Below are positions 1-50,488 of a DNA stretch of 64,000 nt, piece by piece. The notes below the pieces were generated by a model. The model saw nothing but the letters and a program-made list of their open reading frames with translations, searched no databases and was not told the DNA's origin. The translations under genes were made by a program, and so were the position numbers. Each line of letters starts with the position of its first letter. The first letter of the stretch is position 1. The stretch comes from Callorhinchus milii (taxonomy: Eukaryota). The stretch is taken from positions 58,838,001 through 58,902,000 of the forward strand of contig NW_024704745.1 in NCBI RefSeq assembly GCF_018977255.1, given 5' to 3'.

Positions 1-116
1 AGAACCTGCATTGGAGTGTCAGCTAAACTGAACTCAAAATCCCGACTTGGAACTTGAACCCATAACCTTCACTTTCAGAGGCGAGAGTGTTCCCACATAA
101 GTAAGGCTGGCACCTG
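1..116 (-). mobile_element. SacSINE1-like DeuSINE, 5' tRNA-derived head (cut by window edge)
   Basis: Plus-strand 'ttggagtgtcagcta...cttgaacccataacc...tcagaggcgagagtg' matches the other long-SINE heads in the window (e.g. 34365-34460) in reverse; B-box GGTTCAAG on minus. Confidence 0.7.
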
Positions 117-2348
117 ACTATTGAGATTACAGAGCAGGCTTTTCCAGCAGCCTAACCTGCTTGAAAACTCCTTTGTGTGCAGACCATGCATCTTTCAAAC
201 ATTGGCTAATCCCATCTATCTTTTTAATACAATATGGAAAATGTAAAAGAATTTAGGTCTGAATTTATAAGCTGATGCAATATGGTGGATGAACTGTCAC
301 AACATCCAACATCAACCTCTACCTGTGGTTATCTGCCTCTCTCTATCTACCGCTTGTTTGTGCAAGGAGCATGTGAATTATTTAGAATTATGGGTTTGGT
401 TTATAATGTATTCTTGTACTGTTATTTTTGCCTAGATAATAAAAATCACCATGTTTCCAAAGTAACTAATTGGATACGTTTCAATGTGATTAGTTTTAAA
501 ATGAAATACACACGTTATTTCATCATTATGACTTGTTTTTATTCTGGACCTGTTAGTCCTTTGCCTTAGCATTCATAACTCTACTGTTTGGCAAATTCAT
601 GCAGATTAAATTTAAATGCAGTATTGCAAGGCTTTCTTGCTTGACATAAATGTTCATTGATTTGGAAAGAAGAGAAAATTTGTAGTGTTGAAGACGGGCA
701 AAGCTACTTCAGTATATATTTGTAATGAGGGTGAGCTGTAAAGCACCAGTAACCCTTTTCCACATGCTATATGTGTTGATAGCAGTGGCCTTCCAGCTGA
801 AAGAAACCAAATTTTTAATAAAATGATGAAAGGCAAGTGAAAGCATAATTATCAAAACTGACATCACAACTATAACCCTTACACCTAGCTACTCACAAAA
901 AACAAAGTATTTTAGAAATCATTCTAAATCCTCCACTGAATGTAAGAGAGACAACAACCAACCTGAAAACATGAAAACAAATATGTAAGAGTTTTACCCC
1001 CATTTAGAAACCAAGTAAAACTCAGTGCTGAAACAATTACTGGTACAGTCTAAAAAACTGCAATACAGAGTAGCTCCATTAAGTTTATTATTGACAATAG
1101 TTCTCATATTTTACAATAATAATCATCCTTCCATTCGATAAATAGGAATAATAATATAGTGCCTTCACCGCGATGTCTCAAAGAGCTTTACAGGATTTTA
1201 CTGTGAGGTGACTATATATTTGAAGGCAAATAAGGCAACCAATGATTTGATATGAAAGATATCAAATGGCATTAAATAAGAATAAATAGTTTTCAATTAT
1301 GGTGGTTGAATTTAGTGTGGTAAGTGTTTAGTGATTTCATTGGGAAGATACATGAGCTAAAGCAACCAGGCCTCATCTGGACACATTCTGTAGTACCTAT
1401 TGTCTGTCCTTGCTGGTAGGATGGGCAGCAAGAGGAGACAGTGGCTTTTATGGGTACAAATGTGTTTCCTCACTAGTGATTTGCAGTTCAGCTTCAAAGT
1501 GATGAATGGTTGAAAGCTGCAGTCTTCTGTGGCAAATCGGTTCAGTTATACGGTTGCAAGGAGTCAGCGTTCATTTGAAGTGATGTAAGCCATCATTATT
1601 GCACCGTAGGAATCGGCAAATCACAATTGAAAGAAGAGTAGAAGACAACTTAAACAGAGATTTGCAAAAGTAAAATCCTGAACTGCCCAGGGGGGGTGAA
1701 ATAACCAATGGAGATTTTGTTTCTCTAGCTCAGTATTCACACTGGGCTCAGCAGTGCTCTCTCTCTCTTCTCCCTCTGTTCTTATGACTGAGTTCACTTT
1801 CTATTTGATCATTTGCAAATAACTTTAGCATTTGCCCTTCATCTAGAAACAGCTGGTTCTCATCTTGTAGAGGTTCAATATTTATCCCATCAAATATACC
1901 TGGAAGTGCTGGAGGCGGATACCTTTTCTCCGTTCCAATCTCAAACAGAGGTTTCTCTAAACCAGGCCTGTGGCATTAGACATCTACATTACAGTTTTTG
2001 ACTGCCTACTAGTAGGATACTGGCTTTTTGAGTTTGTTTACTGGAAAGTCGATATCCAGAGAAACAGCATTTGAGATTCATATGTGCAGTCTAGACAATG
2101 GTAGTCAGAAAGAACAAAAGCTCTGCGTTTAATACGTGCTGTAGCAGGTGAGCGAGCATTATCTATAACTGAAACAATTATTCAATTCCAAATTCTTTAA
2201 CTTCAATATATTTATATCTGAAATGATTTTCTAAATATGGTACTTATTGCAAGGAAAGCAGCATTTTCATTAACTTCCTTTTAATTATGAAAAAAAATAG
2301 AAGTCACTGGGATCACTCAACAAGTCAGGCAGCATCTATGGAGAAAGG

Positions 2349-2383
2349 AAACTTTTCGAGTCCACAAGCCTTCGTCAGAACTG
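2349..2383 (-). ncRNA. Second, more degenerate minimal hammerhead-like motif (inverted arm)
   Basis: Minus strand reads cagtt-CTGACGA-A-ggcttgtggactc-GAAA-agtt; stem II and helix III are mutated. Confidence 0.4.
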
Positions 2384-2390
2384 ACCCTTC

Positions 2391-2427
2391 AGTACTGATG
2401 AAAGGTTGTGGACCCGAAACGTTGACT
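2391..2427 (+). ncRNA. Minimal type I hammerhead ribozyme-like motif
   Basis: CTGATGA (2395-2401), A, AGGT-tgtgg-ACCC stem II, GAAA (2416-2419), CG, TT. Palindromic ACGT helix III; stem I agt/act. Confidence 0.6.
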
Positions 2428-2570
2428 CACTTTCCTTTCTCCATAGATGCTGCCTGACCTACTGAGTGTTCCCAGCGACTTCTGTTTTTGTTTCAGATTT
2501 CCAGCATCTGCACTATACTGCGCTTTGTTCTCCTTTTAATTTTGTTTGACTAACAGTGGGAGCTTAACAG

Positions 2571-2894
2571 TAATAATAATAATCCTTATATTTGGTGTAG
2601 TGAGTTTCATGTCAGGATATCCCAAAGTTCTTCACAGGATATAGTGTAAAGTGAAGTGATCCACAAACTGCCATGGAATGAGTGATCAATTGTATTTGCA
2701 GGTATTTTGGCCAGGAGAAACCCTTCTCTTTTTGAATAGTGCCGTGGAATCTCTAACCTCCACCACAATAGGCAAACAGGACCTTGTTTTTAACATCTCA
2801 TGCAGAGGACGGCACCTCAGACAATGCAGCACACTCCTGGGACTGCATTGAGTTGTCAGCTTAGACGATATGAGTTCCACATCTCCACATGGGA
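2571..2894 (-). mobile_element. SacSINE1-like DeuSINE body and tail (head continues at ~3506-3575)
   Basis: (TAA)n tail at 2571; 'tttgaatagtgccgtggaatc', 'gacggcacctcagacaatgcagcacactcc' are the reverse complement of the long-SINE body. Confidence 0.75.
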
Positions 2895-3505
2895 TATCCT
2901 CCTTGGAGAGGAGGTAAGCGCAGATTCCTTGGAACTCAACTGCCTCCATGGTGACATGTTTCTCAATCGAATAATGGAACTGAGCTGTGGCGGACTCATG
3001 GGTCCGGTTCCTGAGCCAGGTGGGTCCACAGTATTCCAGGGCACTACTGATGGCAGCACAGCCAGCCTCTTTCATCAGCAGGACGTGGAAGGATAGGGAA
3101 TCATCCCACTCAGCTCCTGTTAATCCTGCAAGCCAAAGCCCTAACAGGCAGGGTGGTTTTAGCTGGACAAGCAGTGGGAAAGCTTGCTAGACAGTGATCT
3201 CAATGGTAAGTTATGTGGTTTTAGCTAGTTAGACTCCAGCAGTACCCCAACGCACATTCTGGGGTCCCAAAACTTTGGCTCTTGCCAACTTGCGCTTAGA
3301 ACTTTCCATAATTCAGTAAGTAGGATGCATGCCTGCAGGGAGAGAGGGCACATTCCATTCAAAGAATGTATCTCTGAAATTTTGATCTCTAGGTAGAATT
3401 TGCATGAAGTTCTCTGTTTGGTTTGGATATTCCTTTGTATGGTGAAGGGTTTCTACATGTGTCAGACACTCGGCTGACCAACCCCTTCCCCCCAATAACA
3501 AAAAA
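2895..3505. repeat. Unclassified dispersed repeat inserted in the DeuSINE
   Basis: Shares 'ggaggtaagcg..a.t..ccttgga.ct.aactg.ctcca.ggtgacat' and 'gttcctgagccagg' with 18590-18725. 2990-3350 is homologous in reverse to 44865-45405. Confidence 0.7.
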
Positions 3506-3575
3506 ACATGTGGGACTTGAACCTTCAATCTTCTGACTCAGGGACAACAGTGCTACCAGTAGAGCCAGGCTGACC
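3506..3575 (-). mobile_element. DeuSINE 5' head, separated from 2571-2894 by an insertion
   Basis: 'gtgggacttgaaccttcaatcttctgactcaggg...gtgctaccagtagagccaggctgac' is the reverse complement of the A/B-box head. Confidence 0.75.
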
Positions 3576-6246
3576 AACAATAATCCTTGGTACCGCATCT
3601 GATGATAGTAAGCAGTGCAGTCAGTGAGGGTGCACAGCCATCTTTGATGTTCTTTGCCAATTAAACAACACCAAATGGACTTTGAATAAAGCTGTCATGA
3701 TCAAAACCATCATACGATTTAAATTAAATTCTTACCTGGCAACAATCTACTTTTTCTTATGAGTGAGTTTAGGAATAGGTGATTCCTGCACTTTGATTAA
3801 ATATTTTGGTCTATGTCCTCGGCATTTAATAAGCAGGGGAGCTGTTTATTGCCTCATTTGTTGACTAACATGGTATCACTTAATTAGAGTTGTATATTGG
3901 AATAGCAAAGCTATGCTAGAACTAGCTTAAATCATGGAGTGAAGCAATTACCAGAGTTCATCTCTTCAGGGGGAAAAAAGAAATGAGTTGGAGATGCAGT
4001 GCTATCAGAACATTTACAAACAAAGCTGACGAGGTACGAATACATACAATTGATGGCCAATACATACAATACCTAATATCTGTGCTCCACAAAGTGAATA
4101 ATATTAAGATTAATTTAACATCAAACGTTTAACCATTGAACTATCTCATTTGAGTGACAACTTATGAAAAAGACAAATAAATGTTCATTATAAAATGCTT
4201 TTTCTGGTAGTTTGCTATATTAGGCTGCAGAATTAAAACCAGTGTCAGTAAGTACTGTGCCATTTTGTGTACTGTAGTATAGGATTTGAGATTTGTCTAA
4301 GCTCTTATGGTTCAGTGCATAAATTTTTGGGCAAATGTGAAACGGAATCGTGTGAATATCCAGCTCCTAGGACAATAATGGGGTGAATCACAATGCAATT
4401 CATACTTACAAATAGCTTCTGATGATAACCAGAACTGTGTTTATGCTGACACCTTCATTTGAGAATTCCATTACAATTGCTGCAATTTAGATCCATTTGT
4501 GTTTCAGCAGTTGCACAATTTGGATCACGTTTTCCTTTAAACTTCCTTTTGTCAATACAAATGAATTCAGGTTTTTGAGTCTCTCTCCTCGTAACTTAGA
4601 AACCTAAGTCTTGAAATCATTCTTTTTTTCATCTCTGAACCCTTCCCAGTGTATCACAGTCCATTTGCAGCGAGTGAACCAACTAAGACCTTTAAAAAGG
4701 TAATGGGAATAATGGAGCCAGCACTGCAGTAAGTGGGAATCAAACGATTAATGAAACCATTTCTTCCCAGTGATCTCAGGATCAAGGCTCCAATGCTGGC
4801 TCAAACCTGACTTATACTTAACATTTTGCAGTAAATCACACAATAATCTCTGCAGGACTTGAATCAGGTATTTTGATGTAATTGATTGCCCTCAAGACCA
4901 ATTTGTGTTAAGTCTCAATTCCTTAAATAACATTCACTTAGCCCTGTGAGAATTCACAACCTTCTTCAGATTCACTGTTCAAAAGTGAGCAACATCTGGC
5001 TTACTTTCATAGCATGGGGATGCCTTGACATCCACAACAACAACAACTTGCACTTATATAGGGCCCTCCAAGCAGGGCAGTGTCTTAGAGCTCTTGACAT
5101 CCCTAAAAAGCAAGTGATTTGCTCTGCTTCTGCACTGAAATGCTAACCAGAGCCGCGTGCAGTACCTGGAGTGGAACGAGGTCTACTACAGATTATAAAA
5201 TTGCACTTGGCTGAGTTTTTCCACTCAACTCAGGAAAAAAATCGGCAAATCCATTATCCACCAAATGGAATTGCTTCAGCACTGTTATGCCCTATTAGAA
5301 TGCAACACATGTGAAGAGGACTGAGGTGTAACTGAGAGGTTTTATTAGGAAGCCATGTCGTTTACTCAAGTTGTACGGCATCCTTGACGGCTTCTCATGC
5401 CTCTTTCCATACTCTTGCTTTCTATATGTATTTCCTAAAGCTGTGGCAGGTCCCTCATCCTAATCTTCTTGTGCTTGTAATATCCATCTTGTTATACAAA
5501 GGGCTGTATAGCGTCACTCAACCTGGCAGACTCATTTTCTGTCCTCTAGTTTTGCGCTTCTAGGTACAAATACGAAATTGGATAGTTTGCATTATATCGG
5601 TATCATTAAAAAATCATTGTTAAAGGCACTCATGCCTGCCCAGTTGCTAAAACACTTGGATCTAGAGGTTTGCAGATCATACTGTTATCCCAGGACACAA
5701 AGGTACAAAAGACTGATCAAAGAGATTAAATCCTACTCTATGTAGCTAAAAGGATTTAAAAGCTTTATGCTGTACTTTTGGATTTATTCCTTATCCAAAT
5801 ACTAAGGTAGGCAAGAAAATTCCTAGAGGGATTACAAATTACAAATTCTTGGATTTGCTAAGGAATGAATAATTACCATGTAATGAATATCTTGTTTATG
5901 AAATTCAGATTCTTTAACTATTGAGTCAGAATTCCATTTGGAGATGTTAATCGCAATATGACAGTAATAATTAAAAGATTCTTTCTGATGAGACTTCAGC
6001 TGCGGAAAAAATGGGCCTTTGAATAAATGTTGCATTTTTGGGGAATTAGTAAACGTGTCTCATTCATAGACTTGCTTTGTGTTAAAAATATGATATTTTG
6101 TTAAAATTGATAGGTGTCAGTAGGTTGTGGGTTCAAGCCTCAGGACTTTGAACTCAATTAGGGCACCACTAAAATACAGTGCTGGGAGAGCTCAACCAAG
6201 GCCCCAACTGCCTATTGAGATGGATGTTGAAGAACCTATGGCACTA

Positions 6247-7046
6247 CAGTAAAACTCACCTTATCTTTATAAGTCGTACAATCGTCTAAGTCATACATTC
6301 ACCCGAGTCCCATTCAGTTTCCTCTCAAAACCACTTAGATTTGTTTGCACTACTCGTATTAATCACCTCCTAACTCATAACGCCACTCACCTACCCTCCA
6401 TTACTCTCACACTTACCAGTTGCATTGAATCACAGGAAATTACATTGTGACCTATCCACCCATTCGCACTTATCGAGCGGATGCGTTAAATCGTGGGAAA
6501 CCCAGGCTTGATCTGTCGTCAAGTGCGCAGAAGAACTTAATTTCCCACAATGTAGTGCTGGCCGGTAAGTGCACATGCGGCAACAACAACAACAACAAAG
6601 CGCCTGTCATGCCGGGAGGACATCCCGAGGTGGAGGATAGACAGAGTTTCAGACCTGAGCTGGGGGTCGGGGTCGGGGAGTGTGCAGGGAGATCAAACAC
6701 GTGGTCGAAGAGGAGGGTCTTGAAATGGGTCTTGAAGGAGGCCAGAGGGTGGGGGCAGAGTGGCAGAAGGCCCTTCCGCCAATAGTGGGGATAGCGAGGC
6801 AAGATGCATTGAATCGCAGGAAACATCAATGCATGTTTTGACCCATCAACACATGTGCACTTACTGGTTGCAGTGACAAACTGCTGCATGCACACTTTCC
6901 AGCTACATTGAATTATGCATGTGCAGTGTAGATTATTGATTAAATCAGATTTTATCCGATTTATACAGTTTGCTTGCAACGGGACTTCGTGTAAGTCATA
7001 CTAAATATTTTGGTCCCGAATGATACAACTTGTTTGAGTTTTACTA
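6247..7046. mobile_element. Tc1/mariner-superfamily (pogo/Tigger-like) MITE
   Basis: TIRs CAGTAAAACTCA (6247) and TGAGTTTTACTA (7035-7046, terminal G>A). TA duplicated at 6245-6246 and 7047-7048. Internal repeats 'tgcattgaatc.caggaaa' at ~6421 and ~6805. Confidence 0.75.
6581..6795 (-). mobile_element. L2 LINE 3' end inside the MITE
   Basis: (CAA)n tail, 'gcgcctgtcatgccgggaggacatccc' stem-loop, minus ORF contains SFKTHFKTLLF (L2 ORF2 C-terminus). Confidence 0.8.
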
Positions 7047-7669
7047 TATTCGAAAAGAGAAGAGAGTTGTTTTTCCTGGTGTCCTGGCCAAACCCGTCTC
7101 CCCCCCAGATAAAATTGCTCATTCACTTCATACCATTTTATGGGATATTGCTGTGTGAAAATTGGCTACCGTGTTCACCTGCAAGTATTCAGTAAAATCC
7201 TGTGAAGTACTTTGCGACTTCTCAACGATGTGACAAAGTGCTATGTTAAATGCATCTTGTTGTGCACAAGATGGCTGTAATGTTTGCGTACAAATACAAG
7301 TCCCTATACTATACAGTAATTGTGGAGTGTTTTAAAGTATTTAATTGCACTGTAAAAAGACAAGTTCTTTCTATCTTTTAATAGTATGTCAGCATTGGTG
7401 CTTTGCGCAATTTGGATAATGACTGTGTGTTGCAAATTTAATGCCTGTTGGCTAGTAATTGTAGTTTTTGAAAAAAATATTTAAAAGAATCCTTTTATTA
7501 AGATGTATCTGAATCCATAAATAATTGTACTTTACATAGTGCAGTTTCTGCACTCGATATTATAATGGCTCTATGTGGGTCCAAGCTTATAGTATCAGAG
7601 CATCATGTCTTTAGAGAATGTAATTTGAATAATGAATTACTTAAGTAATATTTGCTAAATATTTTGCAT

Positions 7670-8015
7670 CCGACTTCAGTCTCACCTCTGATTCAAAAGA
7701 TTTGGGGTTTAAGTCCCAAGTTGGGAAATGAGCTCAGTGTACACTGACAATACAATGCAGTTCTGGCGGAGTTCTGCATTGTTTTTCAGATGAAACATTA
7801 AACTGAAGTCCTATCTGCTTGTACTCATGGATATTAAAGATCACATGGCTCTATTCAATGAAATGAAGTTTCTCCTGATGTTCTGGCTAGCAATTCCCCA
7901 GATAAAATTGGTCATTCACTTTATGGCTGTTTGTGCATTTTAGCAAATTGGTTGTTGCAGTTGTCTGCAAAATACACAGGCGTTACAATTTACAGCAATT
8001 CCTGCTACTTTGGGA
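7670..8015 (+). mobile_element. Old SacSINE1-like DeuSINE
   Basis: 'ttcagatgaaacattaaactgaagtcc...aaagatcacatggctctattc...cccagataaaattggtcattcac'. Confidence 0.7.
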
Positions 8016-9489
8016 TCATTAGACCTTAGGTTACCAACAAGGTTAAGTATACTGGACTTGTTTACCAAAAGCAGCTTGAATAATAATCCTTGCATTTGAT
8101 ATAGTGCCTTATCATGTCATTAAAGATATCTCAACATGCTTCACAGAATATACTATAAAGTGGATTGACTGTGTAGTTTGTGAATCTGTGACTGGACAAC
8201 AATAGGTGGGTATTCTAGAAGGATGAGATCAAATGGACTTTTGTTCATCTGAATCTCTTGTGAGTATCTTTTCCTTTTGTGCTTTGGACATAATTCTATT
8301 GTGCTTAAATAAAATCATGCGAGGAGAAAAGCAAGAACATTGGTTGTATTTGTGTAACAATACATCAACACAAAATTTCTGTCAATAGACAGGTCCTATT
8401 AAATTATAGACTGGCTTTTACTTTCAAAGATGACAGCCGCTTCATATCCTTACAAAATTTTGTGACATATATAATCTGATTTCCTTCTTTTAAGGAAGAG
8501 ACCTAAAAAGAGGAATGCTGTGGGTTTTCGAGAGTAGTTTAGAACTAGCCATTTGAATTTTCAAAAGCAAATGAATAATTTTTACTGTAAAGTGCACGAT
8601 TTCAGAACCTCTTTCCAATCTTCAAAAGGCTTGCTTTTCATAAGTTCAATCTGCTTGCTGTAAAATTTCCCTGCTATTAAACCACATGAATTCTTTCTTT
8701 TCCAGCTACCCAGCTACTTTTATTACTTTCAAGGGCTGCCTGAGTATTTATAACTCATTGTATGATTCCAGAAAGATCTGCGGGAGAAGAATATAATTCA
8801 GAAAGGGGTGCGGGTGGGGTGAAAGGAGAAGGGAAGATTGCATTGAGAGTGTTGCATTTTTTAAAATCTCTGCACAGCTTAGTCCTGCTCTAACTAAAGT
8901 TGTTAAAGTCTGATTTTATTATTACAATATCCCCCTTCAATTAAAAAAGTTAAAAAAGAAAATGGTGAAAATGTCACTTTCTAATTTTCCCTGCCCAAAT
9001 GAAATATTTAAACTTTGCATATTAAAATGTGTGCAGCCCCTTAGAGGATTAATGGAGGTAGCACATGTGGTTCAACTGTGAAAATGCTTTATCTACGCAG
9101 AAGGACAATTGATGGCGATCCAATGCAGTCTTTTGTTGCAGAGAAGAGAACAGAAGGTTTCTCCAAATTCTTTTGAAGAGGGTCACACACATTGCTCTCA
9201 TTTGCTGTTACATTCCAGTGTTGTAAATTGATTTGAAATCCCTGATAAATGCAGGCTTGTGATCCAACAAAGTAATTAGTCTTCTTTTAAAAAAGGCTAA
9301 CAAACCTCAGAATTTTTGTTTCTTTTAAATATCATTTAGAAAGCAGGTGAACGACCAGGTCAATTGGGGAGATAAATGGTTTGCAAATTCATAAGTGGCT
9401 GACGCACACTGACATTTTTAAATGCTTACCTTTTGTAGAAAAGTTCAAAAAAGTTAGCCAGTTTATTGTGTGAGAGCAGCAAAGGGAAT

Positions 9490-9730
9490 AATAGTAATAA
9501 TAATATCATCGCTTTGATATAGCACTTTATCATCATTGAGACATCTCAAAGCAGTTCACAGGACATGGGGTTTGAACCTACGAACCTTCTGACTCAGAGG
9601 TGAGAGTGCTATCACTCCGCCAAGCTGACATACAAACCATTTCCCCTGGAAAGTGATCTACCAATTGACTAGCAACTGGGTTCCTACTTACTGCTGGCCA
9701 AACAGAAGGCATTTGGAGTAAGGAAACGTG
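9490..9730 (-). mobile_element. DeuSINE fragments (tail, head and SINE2-type body)
   Basis: 'gagacatctcaaagcagttcacag', 'ttgaacctacgaaccttctgactcagagg', 'gcaactgggttcctacttactgct'. Confidence 0.6.
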
Positions 9731-10554
9731 CCTTTTGGCAAAGGTTTTGCAATGCCTAGGATACAATGTACTTGCACTTGTTTCTGGTCAAAGTAGGATT
9801 CTCAGCTTGATGTTGGTGTATTTTGTTAACTCAATATGCAACACTTTATGCACAGTGCTCCCTTTAAACCGATGATTACTGTAGGATGAGAATAAGCTCA
9901 AAGAAGGTTTCAAAATCAAACTTGGATAACATTTAAGTTGGTGGAGGAAATCAGATTGTTTCTGTATTTTCTTTATTCTACTTCCTCCCATTAATATCTG
10001 AGTGTCATGTGATTGGAATAATTAGTTTTTTAATCTTCTCTTTGTTTATAACTTATGCCATTTTACTTAAATTGGATCAAAAGGAAAGTAGTTTCCATCT
10101 GGGTTTAAATTTTCTGTTTATTAATGGCAAAATTGCTTTGGTGTCCATTTCTGTGATGGGCAGGGAGAAATCTGTCCATGATGTATATTTCTGTGCAGTT
10201 TCTAAAGATTATCTACAAAATACAGTTTTTACACTTTACAACCACTGCTATTTACATTGTTGTAAATGTTTGTAAATGACATTATGTCAAATGACACGTG
10301 TTAAGGCAATATATCGATTGCAAGATTATTATTATTATCATTATACATGATGGACACTATATAAATGCAAGTCGTTTACAATAAATTCTGTGAAGCGCGT
10401 TGAGATGTCCTCCCAACATGAAAGGTGCTATATCAAATACAAATAATTTTCTTATGCACCAGGAACACTTTAATGATCAAAGAGCTATTTGCTCCTGATC
10501 TCCAGGTGTAGAAGGTGTGCCTAGCATCGTGTCGGAGGTATAAGAGGTGTACAT

Positions 10555-10775
10555 AGCAGTAAGTAGGAATCCAGTTGTTAGTCGATCGGTGGATCGCTTT
10601 TCCAGGGGTAATAATTCCTTNAAAAAAAAATAATTTGGCCACTTAATCCATGACTGCCGCATTTCATCCACAAAATATGCAGTCAATTCACTTTACAGTA
10701 TATTCTGTGAAGGGCTATGAGACGTCTTGAAGACGAGATAAGGCACTATGCAAGGATTATTATCATTATTATTAT
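10555..10775 (+). mobile_element. SINE2-1_CM-like DeuSINE, 5'-truncated
   Basis: Matches 31000-31270: 'agcagtaagtaggaatccagttg...cagtcaattcactttacagtatattctgtgaag...gagacgtcttgaagacg', (ATT)n tail. Confidence 0.75.
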
Positions 10776-11174
10776 TGATTTATTGCAAAAGACTTATTTA
10801 GGATTACATATTCAGAAAAATTCTACGTTTCCACGAGCAAGGAAGATGCAAACACTTTCAAAAGGGGGAAATCCCCATATCTTAAATATACTTTTTGATC
10901 TCAATATCTGAATTTGTTTTTAATATTCAGAAGTGGAGCTGGGATTCTGTAATGGGAATTCTGTGTGAGGGGCTAAATGCTCTCACAAGCATGCTTACTT
11001 CCTTTCAACAACAGAAATACCAACAACAACTTGCAGTTATATATCGCCCTTAAAGTTAGATAAAGTCTCGGAGTGCTTTACAATGATAGAGTTTAATATA
11101 AAACTGGAGGGAATGGAGGGTGGGAAAAGTGACATGGCTTTTTCAAGGTAGGTTTTAAGGCATGATTTAAAGAG

Positions 11175-12105
11175 AACAACAACAACTTGTACTGATATAG
11201 CGCCCTCTATGCAATGTAGAGTCTTATAGCACTTTATAGGGGCAGAGCCTGACTCCGAGCCGGGGGGAGTGGGGGAGGTGACAGTCAAAAAGGAAGGTTT
11301 TCAGGCGGGACTTGAAAAAGGGGAGAGAGGGGAAAGGTGGAGGAATTGAGGGAGACTGTTCCACAGTTTTGGGGCATAGTGGCTGAAAGCGCAACCTCTA
11401 ATGGTGGAGCGGGAGGCACGAGGGGCGAACAGGAGGCTGGTGCCAGTCGAGCGGAGGCACCGGGTGGTGGATTGGGGAGTGAGGGGGTTGGAGAGGTAGA
11501 GTGGTGCCAGGGAATGAATGGATTTGAACACAAGTGTGAGAATCTTGAAGTCAATCGTTCGGTGATGGGGAGCCAGTGGAGCCTGGCCAGAACTGGTCAG
11601 ATGGGGGGACGGCATTTGGTCCAGGTAAGTATGCAAACAGCAGAGTTCTGAATGAGCTGGATTTTTGAATAGTGGAGCTGGGGAGAGCGGCAAGAATTGC
11701 GTTTGAGTAATCCAGGTGGAATGCGAGGGTATCGGTTGCATTTGAGGTAAGGTATGGGTCTGAGGCAGGCAGTGTGGCGGAGGTGGAGCAAGCGACTGGA
11801 TGTGGGGGAGGAGGGACAGCTGGGGGTCGAACTGAAAGCCTAGACTGCACACTGATTCGCTGAGTCTGAGAAAGAGCCCAGGGAGGTTAAGGAGTTTAGA
11901 TCGGCAGGAGTGAAGACATTGACGGGATCCAAGGAGTATGGTTCCGTCTTGTCCACATTCAGCTGCAGGAAGTTTACACTCATCTAGGTCCTAATGTCTG
12001 CCAGATAAGCTGATAGAATATCAGCGGATCTGGAGTCGATGCTGGATGAGGCAAAGCAGATTTTTATGTGTCATCCGCATACATGTGGAAGTTTATATAT
12101 GTGGA
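11175..12105 (-). mobile_element. L2 LINE 3' portion (RT YADD motif to tail)
   Basis: Minus 'aacttccacatgtatgcggatgac' = NFHMYADD at ~12070-12095. ORF 11301-11852 has IDFKILTLVFKSIHSLAP and AFSHYAPKLWNSLP. (CAA)n tail at 11175. Confidence 0.9.
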
Positions 12106-33823: not shown

Positions 33824-34269
33824 AACAACAACAACAACAAGATTCCATTTATTGAGCGCCTTTCACGTCGGGAGGACGTCCCAAGGCGCTGTACAGTTGG
33901 GTCAGGACCCGAGCAGGGGGGAAATGGTCAGGGTGAGGGGAGGGAAGGGAGGGAGCGAGGAGAGGGTAGAGAGTCGAGAGGGGAGCTGAAGGTACGGTCA
34001 AAGAGAAAGGTCTTGAGACCGGCCTTGAAGGAGGAAAGGGAGGAAGTAAGGCGAAGGCACTGGGGGATAGAGTTCCAGAGCCTAGGGGCTGAGAGGCTGA
34101 AGGCCCGGCCACCGATGGTAGGGCGGTTGGGGCGGGGGATGTGGAGCAGACCGGAGCCAGAGGAACGGAGGGTACGGGCAGGTAGGTAGGGGAATAGTAG
34201 GTCAGAGAGGTAAGAGGGAGCAAGGCCGTGAATGCCCTTGTAGATGAGGATGAGGATCTTGAATTCGAT
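33824..34269 (-). mobile_element. Young L2 3' end (~445 bp)
   Basis: Open frame IEFKILILIYK...AFSLSAPRLWNSIP...[11 protein letters not shown], intact CpGs, (CAA)n tail; highly similar to 50040-50488. Confidence 0.95.
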
Positions 34270-50039: not shown

Positions 50040-50488
50040 CAACAAAAACAACAACAACAAGATTCCATTTATTGAGCGCCTTTCACGTCGGGAGGACGTC
50101 CCAAGGCGCTGTACAGTTGGGTCAGGACCCGAGCAGGGGGGAAATGGTCAGGGTAAGGGGAGGGAAGGGAGGGAGCGAGGAGGGGCTAGAGAGTTGAGAG
50201 GGGAGCTCAAGGCACGGTCAAAGAGAAAGGTCTTGAGACCGGCCTTGAAGGAGGAAAGGGAGGAAGCAAGGCGAAGACACTGGGGGATAGAGTTCCAGAG
50301 CCTCGGGGCTGAGAGGCTGAAGGCCCGTCCACCGATGGTAGGGCGGTTGGGGCGGGGGATGTGGAGCAGACCGGAGCCAGAGGAACGGAGGGTACGGGAA
50401 GGTAGGTAGGGGGATAGTAGGTCGGAGAGGTAGGAGGGAGCAAGGCCGTGAATGGCCTTGTAGGTGAGGATGAGGATCTTGAATTCAA
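50040..50488 (-). mobile_element. Young L2 3' end (~450 bp), sibling of 33824-34269
   Basis: Near-identical sequence; same (CAA)n tail and stem-loop. Confidence 0.95.

Follow-up and report, generated by a model that had tools for sequence, protein, structure and literature searches.

A head-to-head pair of Penelope-like element end copies with decayed hammerhead motifs in Callorhinchus milii

We analysed a 64,000-nucleotide stretch of Callorhinchus milii DNA (hereafter the window) and found that the 244-bp insert at positions 2287-2530 is made of two 5'-truncated pseudo-LTR (pLTR) copies of a Penelope-like element (PLE) with a reverse transcriptase (RT) and a GIY-YIG endonuclease (EN), arranged head to head in a published form of PLE insertion. 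It is very likely a one-off insertion of this kind whose hammerheads have decayed. Taken as a whole, it is probably best explained by two PLE end copies that were assembled at one site by twin-primed run-off and then end-joined. The accessible parts of earlier reports already describe head-to-head inverted pLTRs with a tail and a target-site duplication (PMC3846280, PMC8557442) and opposed pairs of minimal hammerheads (PMC4209133). The locus itself, a decayed copy of a published form, matters little, whereas the statistics of its family bear on the open question of how PLEs make head-to-head inverted ends.

Anatomy of the insert and its hammerhead motifs

The insert is flanked by an exact 11-bp duplication, a word with a chance of about 7e-7, or about 7e-4 over 900 boundary placements. 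Its inverted arms match at 89% (2290-2351 with 2431-2492) and at 83% (2350-2384 with 2389-2423), and the predicted hairpin (-133.6 kcal/mol, z -16.4) was equalled by 0/200 shuffles. These results confirmed the duplication and the palindrome with inverted arms that a sequence-only reading of this DNA had described. The palindrome is asymmetric, with a 35-bp tail that is unpaired and present on one arm only and a 6-nt filler at the centre. In the feature list below, family numbering places hammerhead C3 at +1 and the predicted cut after +29, which is 2423 in the plus arm.

2276-2286, no strand: left target-site duplication, 11 bp (exact repeat)
2288-2383, minus strand: inverted tail-less PLE end copy, family position -4 to near +101, with a 9-nt deletion (family alignment)
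2350-2382, minus strand: remnant of a minimal hammerhead with C3 at 2378; pair 15.2-16.2 lost, one mismatch in stem II, 3' strand of helix I removed by the deletion
2384-2389, no strand: junction filler, 6 nt, unique in the genome (genome search)
2390-2495, plus strand: PLE end copy in direct orientation, covering -4 to +101 of the family (family alignment)
2391-2427, plus strand: remnant of a minimal hammerhead with C3 at 2395 and a cut predicted to follow 2423; pairs 2.1-1.1 and 10.1-11.1 lost
2496-2530, plus strand: PLE tail, 35 bp, on a single arm; in longer copies it leads into the ORF 5' region (family alignment)
2531-2541, no strand: right target-site duplication, 11 bp (exact repeat)

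Because the letters of the filler match the family form of the left arm's stem II, about 15-20 nt away, the filler is likely to be a templated end-joining insert.

The CUGAnGA and GAAA boxes had been noticed on both strands, and we located them with C3 at 2395 on the plus strand and at 2378 on the minus strand. The palindrome that had been assigned to helix III and its cleavage site, GAAACGUU, is likewise present in the plus copy, with U17 at 2423. Two pairs of the plus motif are broken, 2.1-1.1 (A.G) and 10.1-11.1 (A.C). Four are broken in the minus motif, which has lost 15.2-16.2, one stem II pair and, via the 9-nt deletion, the 3' strand of helix I. Compared with family-majority letters, the arms differ at 8 and at 10 sites plus this deletion, and signs of constraint are absent. 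In folding, the intact family 8-mer self-pairs at -5.7 kcal/mol, and the minus-arm version does not. The probability of stem II pairs is 0.0 on both strands in the full hairpin, so that sequestration of the hammerheads by their own antisense arm, as had been proposed, is predicted for read-through RNA, but in a trivial sense only. A ribozyme off-switch, suggested on the same grounds, did not hold up: conserved pairs are broken in both motifs and the family core is no better conserved than neighbouring sequence. It is implausible because it needs an on-state, which this copy probably lacks.

At the family level the minimal-hammerhead anatomy holds, with the core boxes, an extra base before stem II, a paired stem II, helix I and a palindromic 15.2-16.2; one natural copy (L087) carries an intact minimal hammerhead with 0 broken pairs. 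The pair 10.1-11.1 is G-C in 83 arms, A-U in 27, G-U in 13 and A-C in 3, and the pair 2.1-1.1 is U-G in 88 arms and U-A in 24. Two subfamilies, A and B, differ by a compensated change at 10.1-11.1 (A10.1-U11.1 in B) and a one-sided change at 2.1-1.1. Stem covariation is thus present at 10.1-11.1, but it is weak, since each change is a single event, one per subfamily. Conservation of the core in the copies is 0.95-0.99 (0.78 and 0.85 at two CpG sites) vs 0.95 in neighbouring sequence, so the inserted copies bear no sign of selection. With E values of up to 10 admitted, a covariance scan with Rfam matched no hammerhead family, either in the window stretch or in the intact family copy, and gave only weak, hairpin-driven matches; this miss is expected because the motif is without helix III.

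The boxes, the extra base before stem II, G10.1-C11.1, the palindromic 15.2-16.2 and a 4-bp helix I resemble the PLE minimal hammerheads described in the available text of PMC4209133. Unlike those, stem II here has 5 bp, subfamily B has A10.1-U11.1, and in this copy the motifs are decayed and the cores lie 17 bp apart. In Schistosoma, the same source places dual minimal hammerheads 100-700 bp apart on opposite strands.

The Penelope-like family behind the insert

When the 0.99-Gb genome was searched with the insert, 1,683 candidates came up. Of these, 40 were scored; 30 loci were retrieved, and two duplicates were left out of the alignment. An exact 19-mer from the arm had 2,414 genome matches vs 0 for its control, and the hammerhead pattern had 2,043 vs 39. 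The Penelope origin inferred at first reading was borne out, as the arm end is shared with an element whose copies carry RT and GIY-YIG coding sequence and the start of the ORF. Upstream of longer copies a GIY-YIG frame and RT motifs were reached. RT and GIY-YIG motifs were seen in L077, L089, L104 and L125, and in L125 and L032 the arm end comes after the RT-EN frame. Matches to Pfam models (RVT_1, E 6.9e-5; GIY-YIG, E 0.037) were both below curated cut-offs, and 6/8 PLE fragments scanned had no relevant match; this support is weak because the copies are decayed. A PDB search with the RT frame gave 0 matches.

Because the tail continues into the 5' region of the ORF in 9/30 loci (L126, L127, L130, L132, L140, L143, L145, L151 and L154), we place the arm at the pLTR-ORF junction. 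A CX2-5CxxC linker between RT and EN, present in 12/17 loci that cover it, marks the Neptune and Nematis clades in the consulted portion of PMC8557442. By the CX4CxxC form of its linker, the partner appears to be of Neptune/Nematis type.

In L127, L130, L132, L143 and L145 we observed a pyrimidine-rich, acceptor-like site about 35 nt past the tail, followed by an ATG from which the frame for the PLE N-terminus begins. Another acceptor-like site, again with an ATG, lies at 2431-2449 of the window. These sequence features make an intron in the PLE 5' UTR possible; no spliced joint on the pLTR-ORF copy L127 was among the contig joints listed. Positions 1377 and 1686 of L127 are connected by an opposite-strand joint with high depth in runs X5 and X8 (presumed RNA, from different studies), which is not listed for the DNA run X1. 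It possibly stems from one expressed, rearranged PLE copy.

The accessible text on EN+ PLEs (PMC3846280, PMC8557442) describes insertions with an inverted 5'-truncated pLTR, an optional tail of 30-40 bp and a target-site duplication. Our insert agrees in its head-to-head inverted end copy, the tail at one end, a duplication of about 8-15 bp and a partner with RT and C-terminal GIY-YIG; the tail has 35 bp here vs 31 bp in Adineta Pen2a. Unlike the forms in those passages, no coding sequence lies between the arms, the arms reach only about 100-140 bp, minimal pairs make up about half of the sampled loci, and 5' starts pile up at one base. The Poseidon PLE of Anolis carolinensis (PAc) provides a biochemical comparison: according to the portion of PMC11167929 available, in vitro it nicks and extends both strands, with RT starting from two internal sites. 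Like PAc, the present family carries its hammerhead where pLTR and ORF meet, and two copy ends, with the tail between them, lie about 100-140 nt downstream of it. Unlike PAc, the partner has a CX4CxxC linker, and head-to-head stubs with a shared 5' start are not treated in that portion. Non-LTR retrozymes (bioRxiv 10.64898/2026.07.22.740005, available text) are also short, non-coding, PLE-derived units with type I hammerheads, but they form head-to-tail tandem arrays whereas the insert is one inverted pair. We rejected this class for the insert, because in that description it requires tandem units with complete hammerheads and here both motifs are broken.

Assembly of the mirror pair

For family statistics we used an ordered sample drawn from the first 100 listed 19-mer matches, of which 97 were included; they fall in 87 loci (L156-L245), and the sample is limited to copies with one exact 19-mer in the first 22 Mb of one contig. 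In genome order, these loci comprised 48 head-to-head inserts, 17 single tailed arms and 22 single tail-less arms, and a tailed arm was paired with a tail-less one in 43/48 head-to-head inserts. After one duplicated locus was dropped, an exact flanking duplication of at least 8 nt (8-14 nt) was found in 25/47 head-to-head inserts vs 1.8% in shuffles. The other 22/47 have no exact duplication of that length. Among short single arms such duplications occurred at 0/13 tailed and 5/18 tail-less loci, and the two priming sites may resolve differently.

The centres of the pairs are nearly all different: 64 pairs (36 in the ordered sample and 28 insert-search loci) yielded 63 distinct centres, and the two loci with a common centre differ once the tail is used to orient them. 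The centre of this copy has 1 match genome-wide with one mismatch allowed, namely itself. Across the genome, we found 34 loci in which each arm begins exactly at -2 and no more than 14 nt separate the two. Their junctions have no filler in 3 cases, one base in 5 and a longer filler in 26, which represent 25 distinct loci with 25 different fillers; the further long-filler match left out is a duplicated segment. Many fillers repeat letters of a nearby arm, a pattern suggestive of templated end joining. The duplication surrounds both arms, so the whole insert arrived in one event, and in this trivial sense the idea of a foldback that moved as a discrete unit was supported. Copying of the unit from a master was not borne out, since unique centres and fillers point to assembly of each mirror pair, most likely, at the site where it now lies. 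A foldback or MITE-like unit copied from a master was rejected on the same evidence, as dispersed copies share no fixed internal sequence. Three pairs of loci (L027/L029, L207/L208 and L095/L096) are identical on two contigs or 67 kb apart, and are either duplicated segments or retained assembly haplotypes.

The two arms of an insert resemble each other more than arms of different inserts, with an identity of 0.908 vs 0.890 +/- 0.003 in shuffled pairs and 18 rare variants common to both arms vs 5.4 +/- 2.3 by chance. Within subfamily A only, identity was 0.913 vs 0.906 and shared rare variants numbered 11 vs 3.3 +/- 1.7. The 36 pairs in which both arms could be called were 33 AA, 3 BB and 0 AB (28/64 pairs uncalled). 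In this copy, the arms are identical at 79/92 positions and have 0 rare variants in common. The shared variants are explained equally well by two cDNAs with a common RNA source, by fold-back synthesis and by subsequent gene conversion.

Copies start and end at preferred places. The 3' ends form two groups, at about +95-105 and +127-141, as is expected from two internal RT start sites that bound the tail (PMC11167929, available portion). We also noticed a few copies that end about 60-70 nt past the tail, near +195 (L152, L154, L218, L224 and about 8 more), possibly at a third RT start site inside the 5' region of the ORF. The 5' starts fall at -6..+5 in 65/139 arms (0.094 per base vs 0.004-0.009 in other intervals) and in 23/40 single arms. 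This pile-up coincides with the 5' edge of helix I, is sharp at -2 to -4 and is present in both subfamilies; 14/139 arms pass farther upstream. Truncation at the hammerhead cut site was ruled out, with only 2/139 arms starting at +28..+32, and a spliced template was rejected because the copies have no upstream exon sequence in common beyond the start. In 58 pile-up arms, G occupies -2 in 43, A -3 in 23 and C -4 in 24, and the letters beyond are near background. In long copies the start site reads as YYANWYY, an initiator-like sequence, with A at -3. Transcription starts inside the pLTR in Penelope and Chlamys-3 (PMC8557442, PMC2377424, accessible parts). The simplest reading of these sequences is that RT ran off the RNA 5' end, with the pile-up as the presumed transcription start. 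Run-off fits best because the starts cluster at the 5' edge of helix I and not at the cleavage site. Counting against an RNA start is that the majority of arms stop at G(-2), missing A(-3) by a single base. A cap-G signal was not specific, with G at -4 in 7/11 non-C cases after A(-3) and also in 14/23 without A(-3). On L127, 49 contigs of run X1 have unrelated loose ends before -2, which are not independent if X1 is the source of the assembly.

We therefore favour, with some reserve, a twin-primed run-off mechanism. The element protein would likely have nicked both target strands 11 bp apart, and each nick would likely have primed one cDNA at two internal RNA sites 35 nt apart, as suggested by the in vitro work on the Anolis PLE (PMC11167929, available portion). 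Both cDNAs would then probably have run off the RNA 5' end just before the hammerhead and been joined end to end, with the unique filler between them. This copy decayed afterwards. With a slighter inclination, we regard the thousands of stubs and mirror pairs as a base-precise fossil record of a PLE reaction that is twin-primed, ends in a strong-stop-like run-off and is closed by end joining. If true, head-to-head inversion is explained without an antisense template, and a vertebrate PLE RNA start maps to the 5' edge of its hammerhead. Capped element RNA is then predicted to begin at -4..-2, and the hammerhead cut site would not be where copies begin. Neither a shared 5' start nor a twin-primed run-off account was found in the open literature covered, subscription papers and supplements lying outside it.

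The same architecture could also arise if the 5' pile-up marked an RT block, at a protein bound to the hammerhead or at an RNA-processing site, and not the RNA start. The start does coincide with the 5' strand of helix I and, in long copies, with a pyrimidine-rich, AG-ending acceptor-like site; the D. virilis intron stops at the 5' end of helix I (PMC4209133, text available), the Anolis hammerhead cleaves only with PLE protein (PMC11167929, portion available), and some arms pass the site. We nevertheless hold a block to be doubtful, given the lack of a common upstream exon sequence, the near-background letters at -5 and beyond, and the absence of a spliced joint among those listed for L127; helix I would moreover have been opened before RT arrives at its 5' strand. 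Self-priming, in which a single cDNA, or the antisense template suggested in the consulted part of PMC3846280, folds back at the end palindrome and copies itself, would account for arms that share rare variants and never mix subfamilies, for the 3/34 junctions without filler, and for a start site that is a mini-palindrome with a 2-nt loop, extended in several copies. It is distinctly unlikely, however, since arms often start at different places (L192, -31 vs -110; L234, -171 vs -220), most junctions hold unpaired fillers, and tailed and tail-less arms are each found alone with the same 5' start.

The reading first offered for this DNA, a non-autonomous foldback copied whole from a palindromic master, draws on at least 40 full-length palindromes with the same outer shape and on the recurrence of the simplest junctions (3 loci lack a filler, and 3 distinct loci have one A/T). 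Against it stand the unique centre of this copy and the diversity of centres and longer fillers elsewhere, and a hairpin would bury both arms; it is largely refuted for this copy and very improbable overall, and rare whole-unit copying may still have occurred at other loci. It is improbable in the extreme that a host transcript has retained the insert as a regulatory RNA hairpin, be it an off-switch or a small-RNA source. The hairpin is very stable on both strands and rotifer PLE copies yield small RNAs (PMC3846280, accessible text), but both motifs are broken even without the hairpin, the arms show no constraint, and no host gene was identified by the scans described below.

Surroundings of the locus

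A crude splice scan of the window revealed no host gene around the insert, and a Pfam search of 148/602 unmasked frames, drawn from the window and from 30 kb of sequence upstream of it, revealed no gene, with three weak matches below cut-off. The intron setting that had been suggested for the insert was not confirmed by these scans. An exon-like 50-nt stretch with acceptor- and donor-like flanks lies at 4649-4698 on the plus strand; a PDB search with its frame (4637-4729) gave 0 matches. Contigs of runs X5, X6, X1 and X4 on window positions 1-12000 were mostly repeats, and the joints listed there included neither an intron joint nor an empty-site joint. The left junction of the insert is spanned by DNA contigs from X1 and X4, runs that may themselves be the source of the assembly.

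A very abundant repeat, matched in many of the retrieved loci, opens the right flank 30 bp past the duplication (about 2570-2660), and family insertions often lie in or beside this repeat. Further along the window, two copies of a 443-bp repeat, 96% identical, occupy 33824-34266 and 50044-50486, and LINE-like fragments were seen at about 11.1-14.8 kb and 61.2-62.8 kb.
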